The position numbers and the translations under genes were made by a program. 10,270 nucleotides of DNA from Nitrososphaerota archaeon (GTDB lineage: Archaea; Thermoproteota; Nitrososphaeria; Nitrososphaerales; UBA57): the NCBI GenBank assembly GCA_013378385.1, contig JACAFS010000035.1, positions 1-10,270 of the forward strand. The letters run 5' to 3'. Positions within the stretch are counted from its first letter, which is position 1. Every line of letters begins with the position of its first letter. A model generated the notes under the pieces. The model was not told the DNA's origin, did not search any database, and saw only the letters and a list, made by a program, of their open reading frames with translations. Positions 182 to 6,492 of the stretch are shown here, piece by piece.

Positions 182-1075
182 CTATTTGACTCGGTAATTT
201 TTGTAATGAATTATCGATTCTTCAGGAGTATTTTCGGCAAATTTATAACCTGAATCAAGTAATTTTTTAGGGAAAACTTTACTACTGCCATATAGAAGAT
301 TTGCAATTTCTCGTCCTAGAACCAATCTGGGAAGAATTTCTGGAATAGATAATATTGCAGGGCGGCGATAAACCTTACTTAACGCTTGATTAAACATGTG
401 ATTGGTTATGGGCTGAGGAGACACTAAATTAACTGGACCGTTAATATTGTCGTTCTGTATTACATGGAGAAGAATATTATTTAATTCATGCATTGAGATA
501 AATGGATAATACTGACGGCCATTACCAAAATCTGAGAATATTGGAAGTTTTAACAATATTAGATTCATTACCTTATCAATAACATTGCCAATACGAAGAT
601 TTACTGTTCTTATGCCAAGTTCTTTTACAGGCATAGTGGCAGTTTCCCAATCACTGCACATATCCGACCAGAATCCATTTCCTGCATTAGAAGACTCGTA
701 TAAATCAGTATTTCCCTGATCGCCGTAGTAACCTGTAGCTGACGCACAGAGAAAAACGTCGGGAGGTTTTTTTAATTTAGTTATCACATTAACTAAATTT
801 TTTGTTGTTTCGACTCGACTTGAATACAAAGCCTGTTTTACATTTTGAGTAATTCGTGTTATAGGAGAACGTCCTGACAGATGAATTATTACATCAAAAT
901 CTTCGAATTTATCTATGTTTAATACGTCCTCATATGGATTCCAAAATATACTAGAATCATCAACATGATCATTTTTTCTTACTAATTTTATTACGGAAAA
1001 TGATTCGCGTGTGATAAAATTTACAAAATTCTGGCCAATGAATCCAGTAGATCCGCTAATTAGTATTTTCTTCAT
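182..1075 (-). CDS. YfcH/TIGR01777-type NAD-dependent epimerase family protein (SDR39U1-like, epimerase domain plus DUF1731-like C-terminus)
   Basis: An N-terminal Rossmann motif MKKILISGSTGFIGQ is present. Family-typical blocks are FWNPYE, DVIIHLSGR, SRVETTKNLV, SATGYYG, WETAT, RTVNLRIG and GPVNLVSPQP. I place the start at M9 of the tracked ORF (ATG at 1075). That puts GxxGxxG at the N-terminus, and a TATA-like box lies about 26 nt upstream. Confidence 0.85.
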   Translation of the reverse strand: MKKILISGSTGFIGQNFVNFITRESFSVIKLVRKNDHVDDSSIFWNPYEDVLNIDKFEDFDVIIHLSGRSPITRITQNVKQALYSSRVETTKNLVNVITKLKKPPDVFLCASATGYYGDQGNTDLYESSNAGNGFWSDMCSDWETATMPVKELGIRTVNLRIGNVIDKVMNLILLKLPIFSDFGNGRQYYPFISMHELNNILLHVIQNDNINGPVNLVSPQPITNHMFNQALSKVYRRPAILSIPEILPRLVLGREIANLLYGSSKVFPKKLLDSGYKFAENTPEESIIHYKNYRVK

Positions 1076-1097
1076 ATGTAAAATATTTTTTATTATC

Positions 1098-1105
1098 ATT
1101 TATAA
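1098..1105 (-). promoter_or_regulatory. TATA-like box (TTATAAAT on the minus strand) for the epimerase gene; implies a leaderless mRNA
   Basis: The box is centred about 26 nt upstream of ATG 1075. This is the archaeal TATA-to-TSS spacing, so transcription would start at or near the start codon. Confidence 0.4.
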
Positions 1106-1133
1106 TACATATAGAAAATTCTTCATGGTGCCA

Positions 1134-1145
1134 AGAATTAATTCT
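1134..1145. promoter_or_regulatory. Perfect 12-bp palindrome AGAATTAATTCT in the divergent promoter region; candidate operator
   Basis: The sequence is its own reverse complement. A third AATTCT half-site lies at 1117-1122. Also, aattctt (1117-1123) and aagaatt (1133-1139) form a 7-bp inverted repeat with a 9-nt spacer. The palindrome sits between the two TATA boxes. Confidence 0.3.
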
Positions 1146-1157
1146 AGTGCTAAATAC

Positions 1158-1168
1158 TATATATATTA
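1158..1168 (+). promoter_or_regulatory. TATA box (TATATATATTA) for the B12-binding protein gene; leaderless
   Basis: The box is centred about 26 nt upstream of ATG 1189. There is no Shine-Dalgarno-like sequence in between. Confidence 0.5.
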
Positions 1169-1188
1169 GAATATGATTTAGTGTCTCA

Positions 1189-2046
1189 ATGGTCTACATA
1201 AGAAATAAACGAGTAAAAGGAATGAATTATTCGTACCTAGTAAGAAGCATCTGGGATAAGAAGAAAAAGGCATCAAAACAAGAAACGATAAAATATCTTG
1301 GGAGAACTGAGAAAATTACATTAGATAATATTCCAGAAGATTATAAAGATGACAAGAATGTAATTAAATTTTTTGCCAAGGATCAGAACTTATCAGGTAA
1401 AAATTATAATAAATATGTTGAAAAGGTGCGTAAAGATTTATTCAAAAAATTAGCAGGTCCTGGACCTGTTAACTTATCTATTGTATATGATGAATACAGT
1501 GATGATTTTTCAATACTAGAATTTTATGATAAAATAATGAAACACATTCTATATGACGTAGGTGATCTTTGGAGGCGAAATGAATTGATGATAGGAACAG
1601 AACACGTTGTGAGTAATAGATTACTTGGAATAATTAGTGATATGAATAAGAAAGACAAGAAGAAGAAGAAAAGATCTAAATTATTGATATGTAATCCTTC
1701 TGGTGAACGTCATAATATTGTATGTAATATGCTTGAATCGATATTAACTAACAAGGGTTATAATGTATACAACATATCTCCGTCGACTCCAAGCAAGGAT
1801 GTGATAAAATACGTAGAAAATATCGAACCAGATATGGTATTAGTATCTATAACACTGCCTGCAAATGTACAAAGTGGTATAAATCTTGTTAAGAACATAT
1901 CCAAAGAATATGACAAACCGATAGTAGTAGGAGGTCAGGCATTAACAGAAACCACCTCAAAGAGATTTCTACCAGCCATAGTAATGCCGAATGAAAATAC
2001 GTTAGAAGATAATTTGAAGGAAATTAAATATTTAGTTCCTGCTTAA
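1189..2046 (+). CDS. Cobalamin (B12)-binding domain protein with CarH-like sensor motifs and a basic N-terminal putative DNA-binding module
   Basis: The helical-cap motif is W128-x9-E138-H139 (DLWRRNELMIGTEHV). A K-rich linker follows (NKKDKKKKKRSK). The Rossmann B12 motif is E173-R-H175-N-I-V178, then x41, S220-I-T222, x25, G248-G249. N-terminal aa 1-40 are VYIRNKRVKGMNYSYLVRSIWDKKKKASKQETIKYLG. Confidence 0.8.
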   Translation: MVYIRNKRVKGMNYSYLVRSIWDKKKKASKQETIKYLGRTEKITLDNIPEDYKDDKNVIKFFAKDQNLSGKNYNKYVEKVRKDLFKKLAGPGPVNLSIVYDEYSDDFSILEFYDKIMKHILYDVGDLWRRNELMIGTEHVVSNRLLGIISDMNKKDKKKKKRSKLLICNPSGERHNIVCNMLESILTNKGYNVYNISPSTPSKDVIKYVENIEPDMVLVSITLPANVQSGINLVKNISKEYDKPIVVGGQALTETTSKRFLPAIVMPNENTLEDNLKEIKYLVPA

Positions 2047-2093: not shown

Positions 2094-2251
2094 TGGGGAC
2101 GGCAGGATTTGAACCCACGATCTCCCGGTCACTGCTGCTCCAAAGGTACATCATCCATTAAGTCAGTTTTACCTAAATTATACTATTAGCTTCTGGAGCC
2201 GTTAGCGGCACAACAAGTGCTGACGCCATAACCGAGCTAGGCTACGTCCCC
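2094..2251 (-). tRNA. tRNA-Trp (anticodon CCA) interrupted by two introns (20 nt at 2202..2221; 63 nt at 2130..2192); no encoded CCA tail
   Basis: The reverse complement folds as follows. Acceptor stem GGGGACG/CGTCCCC plus discriminator A. D arm GCCT-AGCTCGGTTA-TGGC. Anticodon stem TC+CGG / CCGGG, loop CTCCAGA with anticodon CCA = complement of tgg 2194-2196. Variable loop AGATC. T arm GTGGG-TTCAAAT-CCTGC. The spliced length is 75 nt. It closely resembles the Haloferax tRNA-Trp I recall (identical CUCCAGA loop). Both introns sit in bulge-helix-bulge contexts. Confidence 0.88.
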
Positions 2252-3976: not shown

Positions 3977-5095
3977 CTACTGAATCACTCCTATGGTATT
4001 ACCAACGCCTACAATTATTACTTTATCGTTAGGCTTGGTTCTTTCGTCAATAATTCTATTAATAATATCATGAACAGAATCAACACTTTCTGCAATATCT
4101 TTGGTCATGATAGAGATCGCTTCAACAAGAGTCTGTTTTATAACTATTGCATAAACAGGGATGTTATTATTTGTAGCAGCCTCTTCAATTTTGAATTTAT
4201 CTACTCCAATTCCTCCTATTGCAGCTCCTATCCCTTCGGCAACTTCTCCTGTTTTTTCACCTTCTAGTCTCAGGGCAGCATCAATCATGATTAAAAGAGA
4301 TGGATTTTCTTTCTGAATTAACTCTTGAACCGCATTACCAGGTTGACCTACAGTTCCAGCAGGTCCTTTAGCAGTAACAAGAATTGCTTTACGTCCCGAT
4401 ATATCAGATTCGGCATAAACGGTATCTACAGCGATGTCATGTTTTTCATGCTGTAACATTAATTTACCAACAATCATAGGTCCAATCGCATCGCCGACAG
4501 GCTGATTCTTTTTGAATGTAGTCATTGCTTGGTTTAGTGCATCAGCTTGTAACATAAGAAATGGTATAATCATTTGTAATTGTGCGAGAAGAATAAAATT
4601 ATTTGTCTTTTTACCAACTAAATAGAAATGACGAACAATTTTATACACAAAGTTAAATGACGTGGCAATTTCAATAACATTCTCGACAGAGTTTGCCTTA
4701 AGTTCATCTAAATCAGGAAACAGTTGTTTGATTTCACTTTTCATTCGCATGTCTCGACTAGTCATGATATGATCAAGTTTATTTATCACACCGGCGGGAT
4801 CTAAATCAACAGGCATAATGGTAAAATATTCAAGAAATGAATCTAAGCGTTTTATTGTTTCTTCTTTGTTATCTATTCCTTCAGTAATATGATCAATAGT
4901 TTCTTGTCTTGACTTATCTCTCATTTCCTTTAGACGTCCAACAGTTTTGGATAAGTCATTAGTAATAAGCCAAGTTTGTAATTTTTGTCCGTATAAAATT
5001 AAAAGAGCTAACGGAAGATAAACAATTGCAAGATTAATAATTGGATTACTTGTTATTTGCGCGTTTCCTGCTCCAATTATAAATATTAGATCCAT
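3977..5095 (-). CDS. Conserved archaeal membrane-anchored protein of unknown function (DUF1512-like by recollection)
   Basis: The 372-aa ORF has an N-terminal hydrophobic helix (PIINLAIVYLPLALLILYG) and a charged helical region. The C-terminal alpha/beta-looking domain has glycine-rich segments (GPAGTVGQPGN, GIGAAIGGIGVD). Size and layout match my memory of Pfam DUF1512 (archaeal, about 370 aa). This was not verified. Confidence 0.7.
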   Translation of the reverse strand: MDLIFIIGAGNAQITSNPIINLAIVYLPLALLILYGQKLQTWLITNDLSKTVGRLKEMRDKSRQETIDHITEGIDNKEETIKRLDSFLEYFTIMPVDLDPAGVINKLDHIMTSRDMRMKSEIKQLFPDLDELKANSVENVIEIATSFNFVYKIVRHFYLVGKKTNNFILLAQLQMIIPFLMLQADALNQAMTTFKKNQPVGDAIGPMIVGKLMLQHEKHDIAVDTVYAESDISGRKAILVTAKGPAGTVGQPGNAVQELIQKENPSLLIMIDAALRLEGEKTGEVAEGIGAAIGGIGVDKFKIEEAATNNNIPVYAIVIKQTLVEAISIMTKDIAESVDSVHDIINRIIDERTKPNDKVIIVGVGNTIGVIQ

Positions 5096-5158
5096 AAAAT
5101 CAACTCAATTAAGACAGTTATGTTATCACTAGAAAATAAGCATTATCAGATAGAATAA

Positions 5159-5277
5159 AGTGCCGGCACCATTGCTTCACGAGACCGTTAGGACCTCACT
5201 AACACACTGGCGTCGACGGTCTTAACTTCTGGGTTCGGAATGGGACCAGGTGGAACCCCGTCGCTATGGCCGGCAAC
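5159..5277 (-). rRNA. 5S ribosomal RNA (stand-alone, not linked to 16S/23S in this window)
   Basis: The reverse complement reads TGCCGGCCATAGCGACGGGGTTCCACCTGGTCCCATTCCGAACCCAGAAGTTAAGACCGTCGACGCC...AATGGTGCCGGCA. It has the universal 5S blocks CCCAUUCCGAACC and GAAGUUAAG. The terminal helix I pairs TGCCGGC/GCCGGCA. It is a GC-rich island in AT-rich DNA. The ends are accurate to about +/-3 nt. Confidence 0.9.
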
Positions 5278-5373
5278 AATACATTATAAAAATTACACAT
5301 ACATTAACTTTTTCATTATTCACACGATAAAATCATATTAACGAAAGATAACTTATTAAATGCAGGTATAAAA

Positions 5374-6492
5374 TTGGCAGATTATTCAGTAACTCCATGG
5401 GAAGTAAAAGGAGACGTAGATTACGATAGATTAGTAAGGGATTTTGGAACGTCGTACATTGACCAATCTTTAATGAATAGGGTGGAAAAGCATACTGGAA
5501 AACCGCATTTTATGTTAAAAAGAAAGGTATTTTTTAGCCATAGAGATTTCAACTGGATTCTTGACAAATATGAAAAAGACGAAAAATTCTTTTTATACAC
5601 GGGAAGAGGACCTTCAGGAGATACACATTTAGGGCATTTACTACCTTGGATTTTTACCCAATATTTACAAGAAAAATTTGGTGTAGAATTATATTTTCAG
5701 ATTACTGATGACGAGAAATATATGCATGATAGGTCATTAACAAGGAAACAAGTATCGGATTTCTCTTATGAAAATATATTAGACATAATAGCATTGGGTT
5801 TTGATCCAGATAAAACATTCATTTTCAAGAATACTGAATACATAAAAACGATGTATAAAATTTCAACAGATATAGCAAAACATGTAACATTTTCCACGGC
5901 AAAAAGTATCTTTGGTTTCCAGAACAGTTCAAATATTGGAATGATTTTTTTCCCGTCGTTACAAGCTGCGACTTGTTTTTTGCCTTCAGAATTAAAAGGA
6001 AAGAATATTCCATGTTTGATTCCAGCAGCAATAGATCAAGATGATTATTGGAGAGGAATTGCTAGAGAGATTGCACCAAAACTTGGTTATTATAAGCCAG
6101 CTCAGATACACTCGAAATTTTTACCAGCGTTGCAGAGGGGAGAGAAAATGAGTGCGTCAAAACCAAACACTGCAATATTCACAACTGATGAACCAGAAGT
6201 AGCTGAGAAAAAAATAAAAAGTGCGTTTACAGGAGGTAGGGATACTGTAGAAGAGCATAGAAAACATGGGGGTAATCCAGATATAGATAGCGCATTCCAA
6301 TACCTTTACATGATTTTAGAGGAGGATGACAAGAAAATAGAAGAGATTGAGAGAGATTATAGAGCAGGTAATCTATTATCAGGAGAATTAAAACAAATAG
6401 CTGCAGAAAAAATCAAGATATTTTTAAAAGAACATCAAAGAAAAAGAGAGTCTGCAAAGAAAACTTTCGATAAATTTATTTTGAGAGATTAG
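5374..6492 (+). CDS. trpS: Tryptophan--tRNA ligase (archaeal/eukaryal type), TTG start
   Basis: Class I motifs are present: HIGH-like GDTHLGH and KMSKS-like KMSAS. The N-terminus (M)ADYSVTPWEVKGDVDYDRLVRDFGT matches the conserved archaeal TrpRS N-terminus I recall (…VTPWEV.G.VDY.KL…). The next in-frame ATG would delete it. TTG 5374 is the first canonical start after the in-frame stop at 5305. Confidence 0.9.
   Translation: MADYSVTPWEVKGDVDYDRLVRDFGTSYIDQSLMNRVEKHTGKPHFMLKRKVFFSHRDFNWILDKYEKDEKFFLYTGRGPSGDTHLGHLLPWIFTQYLQEKFGVELYFQITDDEKYMHDRSLTRKQVSDFSYENILDIIALGFDPDKTFIFKNTEYIKTMYKISTDIAKHVTFSTAKSIFGFQNSSNIGMIFFPSLQAATCFLPSELKGKNIPCLIPAAIDQDDYWRGIAREIAPKLGYYKPAQIHSKFLPALQRGEKMSASKPNTAIFTTDEPEVAEKKIKSAFTGGRDTVEEHRKHGGNPDIDSAFQYLYMILEEDDKKIEEIERDYRAGNLLSGELKQIAAEKIKIFLKEHQRKRESAKKTFDKFILRD

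Follow-up and report, generated by a model that had tools for sequence, protein, structure and literature searches.

A candidate B12-dependent, possibly light-gated one-component regulator with a beta-sheet head in Nitrososphaerota archaea

The window, by which we mean the whole analyzed stretch of 10,270 nucleotides from the Nitrososphaerota contig JACAFS010000035.1, carries a gene for a 285-residue protein with the putative organization of a B12-dependent transcription regulator, placed back to back with a gene for an epimerase. An earlier note on this DNA had described the protein as a CarH-like cobalamin sensor, in which a lysine-rich linker joins a helical bundle to a Rossmann-type B12 domain, fused to an N-terminal domain of a beta type; the open reading frame, its motifs and the linker are all present in the translation exactly as described (Table 1). 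An AlphaFold2 model built from 61 homologues (pLDDT 87.7, pTM 0.77) divides the chain into three N-terminal strands (residues 2–9, 12–23 and 28–39), a helical bundle (71–155) and a Rossmann domain (164–282), with residues 156–163 between the latter two forming a coil. The linker is poorly conserved in the 61-member alignment that we used for conservation, in which identity goes down to 35%. Our account is built from sequence, predicted structure and comparative genomics, from which binding, photolysis and oligomerization are all inferred.

As far as computation on the sequence can show, the bundle and the Rossmann domain carry the residues of a B12 photoreceptor, with W128, E138 and H139 as the predicted cap over the 5'-deoxyadenosyl group and H175 as the putative lower axial ligand. 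The helical region contains W128-RRNELMIGT-E138-H139, encoded by nucleotides 1570–1605, which is the exact Wx9EH that the earlier note had pointed out. The Rossmann domain reads E173-x-H175-x-x-V178, then 41 residues, S220-I-T222, 25 residues and G248-G249. The CarH family has been defined by Wx9EH together with ExHx2Gx41SxV/Tx22-27GG (PMC8156234), and V178 is indeed, as had been remarked, the sole deviation from the second of these motifs, valine being common at this position across the family. Among the 61 homologues, G125, W128, H139, G172, E173, H175, P201, S220, T222, G248 and G249 are invariant, and E138 is kept in 60.

The profile searches and structural comparison that had been proposed as checks give a consistent picture. 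The Pfam B12-binding model (PF02310) matches residues 166–255 at E = 1.2e-10 and 41.8 bits, above its cut-off of 32.1, and B12-binding_2 (PF02607) matches residues 108–144 weakly (E = 0.021), many homologues carrying a precomputed B12-binding_2 assignment. In a sequence search of the PDB, the top match is 8JBS, the B12-binding domain of CtMerR (E = 5.5e-12), followed by MetH, the photocobilins 8J2W/X/Y and TtCarH. The alignment places G125, W128, E138 and H139, without gaps, on CtMerR G153, W156, E166 and H167, and G172 and H175 on G201 and H204; these CtMerR residues contact adenosylcobalamin (AdoCbl), and H204 is the lower axial ligand (PMC11796333). Four elements, GxxW, EH, GxxH and GxxxP, have been proposed as the signature of light-responsive B12 domains (PMC11796333). 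Three of these SignatureFinder elements are intact here (G125xxW128, E138H139 and G172xxH175), and the fourth reads S197xxxP201. Foldseek ranks the predicted fold closest, in order, to CtMerR in its dark and light states (8JBS/8JBT), the photocobilins 8J2W/X/Y, AerR (7TE2) and TtCarH (5C8D), at E values from 6e-11 to 2e-9, with corrinoid methyl carriers and MetH below these photoreceptor structures. Taking into account the PF02310 score, the alignment to 8JBS and the invariance among homologues, the motif match is beyond chance, and we consider it very likely that the regulator binds B12.

A B12 domain of this kind could alternatively belong to a corrinoid carrier of a methyltransferase system, similar to MtbC, MtaC or MtgC. 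Several homologues bear the automatic JGI label 'methanogenic corrinoid protein MtbC1', others being labeled 'MerR family ... light-induced transcriptional regulator', and the NCBIfam models MtgC, MtaC and MtbC match weakly, with E values from 1e-8 to 6e-6. However, these matches amount to 25–35 bits, compared with curated cut-offs of 310–450. The best NCBIfam model is the CarH equivalog NF052513 (E = 4.3e-13, over residues 114–267 only), and the MetH and methanogen corrinoid models score below it, all of them far under their cut-offs. Furthermore, the Wx9EH cap is kept, there is an extra basic N-terminal domain, photoreceptor structures outrank corrinoid proteins, and in about 200 neighborhoods there is no methyltransferase gene; orthologues in corrinoid methyltransferase operons, which the earlier note had named as evidence against a regulator, were thus looked for and not found there. 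We reject a methyl-carrier identity on scores and gene context, and leave it a very low probability.

The N-terminal 40 residues are the most conserved region of the protein, with a mean top-residue frequency of 0.79 as compared with 0.64–0.65 in the B12 subdomains. They are also strongly basic, containing 13 Lys/Arg and 3 Asp/Glu (net charge about +10); residues 2–38 read VYIRNKRVKGMNYSYLVRSIWDKKKKASKQETIKYLG. In the AlphaFold2 model this head consists of three long antiparallel strands followed by a short helix, with a pLDDT of about 90 in the full model and 91.6 when residues 1–65 are modeled alone. No MerR or other helix-turn-helix (HTH) family of Pfam or NCBIfam was detected even at E<=10, and scans of residues 1–90 and of two orthologous heads with both libraries gave nothing meaningful, which bears out the description of the domain as a beta type other than MerR. 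A short, basic, three-stranded antiparallel sheet at the N-terminus of a larger protein is also a feature of AP2/ERF and of the arm-binding domains of the Tn916 and lambda integrases.

A profile of the head module gave 556 matches among 1.84 billion representative proteins, its relatives including HNH endonuclease fusions, an AbiEii nucleotidyltransferase fusion, a family of roughly 170 residues and a tandem duplication. A second, word-indexed search found many stand-alone module proteins of 45–90 residues in DPANN and Thermoproteota genomes. On the basis of its charge, its conservation and the nuclease fusions, we argue for the head being a nucleic-acid-binding module. As it has no significant structural neighbor in the PDB or BFVD, its assignment to DNA binding in particular is argued from charge, fusions and context.

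The earlier note had likened residues 1–40 to the N-termini of IS1634/IS4-type transposases, a likeness that we could not reproduce. No protein of transposase size is found among the best 150 of the 556 profile matches, and no transposase Pfam domain among 120 listed relatives from the word-indexed search, so that the 270 listed relatives contain no transposase. Neither NCBIfam and Pfam scans of the heads nor NCBIfam scans of eight module-bearing proteins hit a family of insertion sequences (IS), and a tblastn search against plasmids gave no match. Since no transposase was seen and no IS model matched, the likeness to IS1634 is unconfirmed within the sensitivity of these searches.

The module of about 40 residues is itself a mobile archaeal domain without family assignment (proteins P0223, P0224, P0243, P0228 and P0321–P0337), which occurs in fusions to HNH endonucleases and to an AbiEii toxin-type nucleotidyltransferase, in one tandem duplication, and as stand-alone proteins of 45–60 residues on long DPANN contigs. 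A 126-residue Arg/Ala-rich fragment, P0219, has the same head and a CarH-like helical bundle, cut at the Trp. It matches the NCBIfam CarH model at E = 5e-5 and its composition suggests a source of high G+C, which hints that the architecture may extend outside low-G+C marine and soil lineages.

The regulator has 153 homologues among 5.8 billion proteins searched, nearly all of them full length, and every named one comes from Nitrososphaerota. In a scan of one genome per species, 239 loci were found, all with titles of Nitrososphaerota or Thermoproteota metagenome-assembled genomes (MAGs), which span Nitrosopumilaceae, Nitrosopelagicus, Nitrosotenuis, Nitrososphaeraceae, Nitrosopolaris and other Thermoproteota MAGs. 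In Nitrosopelagicus loci L070–L079, at 5002–5911, the regulator is directly preceded, on its own strand, by genes for a MEDS-domain protein (PF14417, E = 2.5e-8) and for a small protein of the winged-helix type (HTH_45, E = 1e-12), which follow a gene for a short-chain dehydrogenase/reductase (SDR) membrane protein. MEDS is among the partners of light-responsive B12 domains (PMC11796333).

The regulator and epimerase genes share a spacer of 89 bp, and this contains a predicted operator, placing a conserved direct-repeat motif inside the region 1100..1188 that the earlier note had singled out. The motif emerged from an alignment of the 160-bp regions that precede the regulator gene in 80 loci, and its bipartite consensus is TTAGCACTAG-N9-TT(A/G)(C/G)CAC(T/C)A(G/T). 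In the window it reads TTAGCACTAG aattaattc TTGGCACCAT on the minus strand and is the single match, with 0.06 expected in shuffled sequence for the degenerate pattern. At a looser score, a site lies at most 150 bp upstream of the regulator orthologue in 50 of 78 loci, compared with 77 of 701 other open reading frames of the same loci (11%) and one of 3900 shuffled upstream regions (0.03%). Most remaining loci have weaker copies, or have the regulator behind another gene with the site at its promoter. Strict matches are intergenic in 97 of 98 cases. The half-sites are spaced by 19 bp in 114 of 158 sites and by 18–21 bp in the others, with two to four copies of the repeat per promoter, some having three or four in register, and the motif adjoins orthologues across both Nitrosopumilaceae and Nitrososphaeraceae.

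The position of the motif relative to the gene is equally regular. In the usual layout, the second repeat is followed directly by TTTAAATA or TTTATATA, with the ATG about 30 nt past the repeat. The same order of motif, TATA-like box and ATG is found at about 150 other promoters, and a search of metagenome contigs for the consensus gave at least 120 stretches, nearly all with this order; the architecture recurs on about 100 independent metagenome contigs. The window operator lies 3 nt from the TATA-like box of the regulator and 17 nt from that of the epimerase, both boxes being comprised in an inverted repeat (I1, 1100–1114/1157–1171) around it, and the minus-strand TATA layout is kept in loci L001–L005. 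This layout suggests an archaeal TATA box with the repeat on the position of the B recognition element (BRE) and, because the TATA-like box is centered about 28 nt before the ATG, a leaderless mRNA.

Two other elements of the spacer were considered and rejected. The 12-bp palindrome AGAATTAATTCT (1134–1145) consists only of the motif spacer and the edges of the repeats and is not kept in L002–L005. A possible third half-site, GAGACACTAA (1179–1188), is out of register by its distance of 35 nt and is not conserved. In L135 and L198 (9137–9850), a half-site occurs by chance in a G+C-rich tandem array with the 19-bp unit GGCTTAGCACTAGGTGCTT, which is not a promoter. Several Nitrososphaeraceae MAGs carry two paralogous regulators on separate contigs (L009/L059, L011/L020, L015/L066, L021/L037 and L026/L028), the promoters of which bear half-site variants such as TAGTCATTAG-N9-TTAGCACGAG and TTAGCACCAG-N9-GTACCACTAA.

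Considering its co-location with the motif and the autoregulatory position of the sites, the regulator is probably the factor that reads the motif. The protein could instead act in the manner of AerR. AerR/PpaA of Rhodobacter (7TE2) shares the fold of the B12 unit and ranks high among the structural matches; it lacks a DNA-binding head and has CrtJ as its partner. The window protein would then be a partner of another factor that binds the TTAGCACTAG repeats, with its head serving as a protein- or RNA-interaction domain. Such a role would agree with AerR being among the nearest folds, with the lack of detectable similarity between the head and known DNA-binding folds, and with the recurrence of Zn-ribbon proteins and a winged-HTH gene in the same gene islands as the regulator. 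However, the head combines a strongly basic character with the highest conservation in the protein and is joined to nucleases elsewhere, and the motif stays with the regulator where the Zn-ribbon and winged-HTH genes are absent, as in the window and L001–L005. Tandem direct repeats also fit a head-to-tail oligomer of the CarH type, and compared with AerR the window protein adds a conserved basic domain and an autoregulatory DNA motif. We therefore regard an AerR-like role as improbable.

We favor, with some confidence for the mechanism as a whole, the interpretation that the protein is a one-component AdoCbl-dependent transcription factor of the CarH functional type with a different DNA-binding head. 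The sequence and fold matches, the beta head and the motif all lend support to the one-component archaeal regulator, combining a CarH-type sensor with a novel head, that the earlier note had put forward. In the mechanism we propose, the beta module would read one half-site, and the AdoCbl-loaded protein would form oligomers by way of its B12 domains in the head-to-tail manner of CarH. With several of its heads placed on the tandem repeats, the oligomer would cover the BRE/TATA region, block TFB and TBP and so repress transcription. Photolysis of the Co-C bond, or shortage of AdoCbl, would break the oligomer and free the promoters. The window operator, which has a divergent TATA-like box on either side, may thus control both the regulator and the leftward epimerase operon. 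That the regulation is repression is a part of the mechanism we hold with less assurance than the link between protein and motif.

The genes that stand behind the motif were identified by clustering those that follow about 150 sites. They encode a secreted repeat protein (38 cases), a 78-residue Zn-ribbon protein (24 cases), a flavin amine-oxidase/CrtI-like enzyme that comes after the Zn-ribbon gene (site 30 or about 306–309 nt upstream in 24 of 28 contigs), a 66-residue membrane protein, the regulator itself, DUF6789-like membrane proteins, TspO (PF03073, E = 7e-51; site 29 nt upstream), an NDH-2-like flavoprotein, a class III nucleotide cyclase and an NmrA/SDR protein with a membrane tail. 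The regulator of Nitrosopumilaceae lies within an island of up to nine sites in 12 kb, together with genes for a DUF1722 protein (E = 1.6e-32) and for a DNA photolyase (FAD_binding_7, E = 1.4e-82). In L062 and L158 the photolyase gene comes third in a co-directional string with the motif at its head, and L118, L141 and L200 have a single clear half-site in the photolyase spacer; with this evidence its membership in the regulon is probable rather than shown. TspO, SDR and amine-oxidase genes occur in bacterial photo-oxidative stress regulons. A LitR-controlled operon of Pseudomonas comprises PhrB, LitR and the DUF1722 protein RudS (PMC11417400). The motif-marked islands resemble bacterial light regulons. 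In the window lineage the locus is minimal, with one operator between the regulator and the leftward operon, and an SDR-membrane gene a few kb off.

The amine-oxidase operon behind the motif is always headed by a member of a 78–83-residue family with four Cys pairs (MGASCRGVC...CPCCK...), for example in L064 (599–832), L134 (1291–1524) and about 20 metagenome loci. In some Nitrosopumilaceae, a small gene related to this family immediately precedes the regulator, and the Cys-pair protein could be a second regulatory component.

The identity of the host bears on the question of which signal is sensed. The whole window is collinear with five MAG contigs at 78–99% protein identity, one of them from UBA223, whose regulator is 85% identical, and it is partly collinear with SAT139. 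Both UBA223 and SAT139 are heterotrophic marine Nitrososphaerota (HMN; Table S2 of PMC13374868). The G+C content of the window, 33.3%, agrees with an HMN mean of 32.6%. The earlier note had assumed a cobalamin-making, photoinhibited ammonia oxidizer, which the synteny contradicts, the host being a member of the HMN without B12 synthesis. As the host is not an ammonia oxidizer, the argument from cobalamin and photoinhibition fits the family in ammonia-oxidizing archaea (AOA), not the window. HMN are obligate deep-sea heterotrophs that co-occur with ammonia oxidizers and that are without hemABCD and without complete pathways for B12 and several other vitamins (PMC13374868). Nearly all of the 45 HMN genomes tabulated carry the PduO/MMAB adenosyltransferase and methylmalonyl-CoA mutase (mcmA1; Table S5 of PMC13374868). 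Because of this adenosyltransferase, HMN can make AdoCbl from salvaged corrinoid, and because these deep-sea archaea cannot make B12, its availability may be the signal here.

An explanation that we consider possible, if rather doubtful, is therefore that the regulator responds to B12 availability and not to light, being bound to DNA only with AdoCbl, with cobalamin salvaged from neighbors such as ammonia oxidizers. This would suit a window that is syntenic with mainly deep-sea organisms lacking B12 and heme biosynthesis, the more so as HMN keep both the pduO adenosyltransferase and the AdoCbl-dependent methylmalonyl-CoA mutase, and as every cofactor-binding residue of the regulator is kept in the HMN clade. 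There is also a precedent in CarH of M. xanthus, for which repression requires exogenous B12 (PMC8156234). However, in about 200 loci neither the neighbors of the regulator nor the genes that follow the motif include one for B12 synthesis, uptake or salvage, or for a B12-dependent enzyme or methyltransferase. A Wx9EH cap is also the mark of a photoreceptor-type domain, and in AOA the regulon has the appearance of a photoprotective one. In addition, dim blue-green light may persist in the upper mesopelagic. It is there that HMN abundance peaks (PMC13374868), which also counts against B12 as the signal. In the HMN host, exogenous B12 supply may matter as much as light. In AOA, which are abundant and light-sensitive nitrifiers, light is the likely and better-supported signal, since the operator-marked genes resemble a photoprotection regulon. 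It is conceivable, though unlikely, that both apply: the regulator of the genome-streamlined HMN would sense B12 released by AOA neighbors, as an interspecies signal that switches a small regulon, while the same ancient factor would be the first archaeal B12 photoreceptor in AOA.

Several observations weigh against a light-gated, CarH-type repressor. The match to NF052513, at 49.2 bits, is far under the 400-bit cut-off of that model. The canonical glycine after the axial His is V178 in the window protein; given the spread at this position among the homologues (A in 34, V in 12, G in 11, S in three and P in one), we regard the valine as a family-typical replacement. The glycine of GxxxP is S197, with Ser in 56 of 61 homologues and P201 in all, and in the CtMerR structure this glycine makes no contact with AdoCbl (PMC11796333). 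The residue after the conserved Trp is K, E or R in the 61-member alignment and never His, and the lack of a His after W128 rules out a CarH-like bis-His light state, as it does for CtMerR. The head is without significant structural neighbor in the PDB or BFVD. The motif is tied to the protein by co-location and autoregulatory position, and it might be bound by some other factor. Lying on the upstream side of the TATA box, such an operator could also serve activation, the link between motif and photolyase is indirect, and the dark ocean is the main habitat of the window lineage, making light a weaker candidate for the signal in this host.

The comparison with CarH and class I LitR (T. thermophilus, M. 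xanthus, Bacillus megaterium) shows both likeness and divergence. In common with these, the window protein is a one-component chain of head, linker, bundle and Rossmann domain with the Wx9EH and ExH...SxT...GG motifs, its presumed operators are tandem direct repeats overlapping the promoter, and its gene is found beside genes of a photoprotection type. It differs in having a three-stranded beta-sheet head, whereas CarH has a MerR winged helix, and the repeat period is 18–20 bp as opposed to 11 bp. CarH promoters are of the sigma-70 type, but here the promoters are archaeal TATA/BRE and the hosts are archaea. The bis-His light state of TtCarH has no counterpart in a protein without His next to the Trp, V or A follows the axial His in place of the glycine of CarH ExHxxG, and the score falls short of the family cut-off.

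The best match in both sequence and fold is CtMerR of Chloracidobacterium thermophilum (8JBS/8JBT), which aligns without gaps over GxxW, EH and GxxH and shares the Arg after the Trp (WRR in both). Nevertheless, it has a MerR-type head and a Gly in GxxxP where the window protein has Ser, and the identity in the structural alignment is about 18–20%. The photocobilins and the domains predicted by SignatureFinder are similar in using a B12 photoreceptor domain as a module on varied outputs, but the window protein is without a biliverdin-binding or GGDEF domain. The partners reported in the SignatureFinder survey are HTH, DGC, BBD, GAF and MEDS, and neither this beta module nor archaea are mentioned there (PMC11796333). 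Because it has no MerR head and scores below the cut-off of the CarH family, we keep the protein apart from that family, and it is best filed as a variant B12 photoreceptor-regulator.

Table 1. Features of the regulator locus and other elements of the window, in coordinates of the 10,270-nucleotide stretch.
Feature	Coordinates	Strand	Basis
Regulator gene, 285 aa, ATG start	1189..2046 (stop codon included)	+	Open reading frame listing
N-terminal basic beta module, aa 1–40 (presumed DNA-binding head)	1189..1308	+	AlphaFold2 strands, charge, conservation
Head extension, aa 41–62: I48-P49 invariant, F61 nearly so, helix 56–64	1309..1374	+	Alignments, AlphaFold2
Helical bundle, aa 71–155, cap above cofactor upper face	1399..1653	+	AlphaFold2, weak Pfam B12-binding_2, Foldseek
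Bundle helices 71–89, 96–103, 109–129, 135–155	within 1399..1653	+	AlphaFold2
G125-x-x-W128-x9-E138-H139 (GxxW and Wx9EH/EH elements)	1561..1605	+	Gapless alignment to CtMerR
Lys-rich linker NKKDKKKKKRSK, aa 153–164, bundle–Rossmann junction	1645..1680	+	Read from translation
Rossmann-type B12-binding domain, aa 164–282	1678..2034	+	Pfam PF02310, AlphaFold2
G172-E173-R-H175-N-I-V178 (GxxH/ExHxxG element; presumed lower axial His175)	1702..1722	+	CtMerR alignment, conservation
S197-P-S-T-P201, GxxxP counterpart, S in place of G	1777..1791	+	Aligns to CtMerR G226-P-N-T-P230
S220-I-T222, SxT of classical B12-binding motif	1846..1854	+	Sequence; invariant
G248-G249, GG of classical B12-binding motif	1930..1935	+	Sequence; invariant
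Predicted operator: direct repeats TTAGCACTAG (1153->1144) and TTGGCACCAT (1134->1125), 19 bp apart	1125..1153	-	Motif scan
TATA-like box CTATATATAT of regulator gene, centered ~28 nt before ATG 1189	1157..1166	+	Sequence; inferred function
TATA-like box TATTATAA of divergent epimerase, ~28 nt before Met9 ATG 1075	1100..1107	-	Sequence; inferred function
NAD-dependent epimerase/DUF1731, divergent; candidate co-regulated target	182..1099	-	Epimerase E=1.3e-10, DUF1731 E=1.2e-09
tRNA-like gene, ~158 nt	about 2094..2251	-	5' GGGGACG pairs with 3' CGTCCCC
Complete 5S rRNA gene	5158..5277	-	Rfam RF00001, 75.5 bits, E=5.6e-15

The real start of the divergent epimerase is probably Met9 (ATG 1075), from which its SDR glycine motif starts at residue 7. 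The leftward operon consists of the epimerase gene and two DUF6789-like genes in the window and in L001, and of DUF6789-like genes alone in L002–L005, where a DUF6789-like membrane protein gene takes the place of the epimerase. As it is absent at this position in these closest relatives, the epimerase gene seems to have been inserted recently, in front of a DUF6789 operon. Downstream of the regulator lies a tRNA-like gene with a T-arm-like GGTTCAAATCC, which would contain about 80 nt of intron(s); neither ARAGORN nor Rfam, even at E<=1, gives a call for it. The 5S rRNA gene stands alone between the DUF1512 and tryptophanyl-tRNA synthetase genes, apparently unlinked to 16S/23S.

The literature we searched contains no discussion of this protein family and no B12 photoreceptor-regulator for archaea or Nitrososphaerota, in line with the statement of the earlier note that no characterized photoreceptor or B12 regulator was known for AOA. 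B12-based photoreceptor-regulators have been described for bacteria. If our interpretation is correct, the protein would show a bacterial-style sensor module wired to an archaeal TATA/BRE promoter, and its head would add a new and small DNA-binding fold, of wide distribution in archaea, to those known. For optogenetics, compact switches that respond to green light and have a novel DNA-binding specificity are also of interest. For the AOA, it would provide a testable light-response pathway, comprising the sensor, a 29-bp operator and a candidate regulon of photolyase, DUF1722, CrtI-like oxidase, TspO and SDR genes. For the deep-sea heterotrophs, it points to vitamin sensing between species as a possibility.

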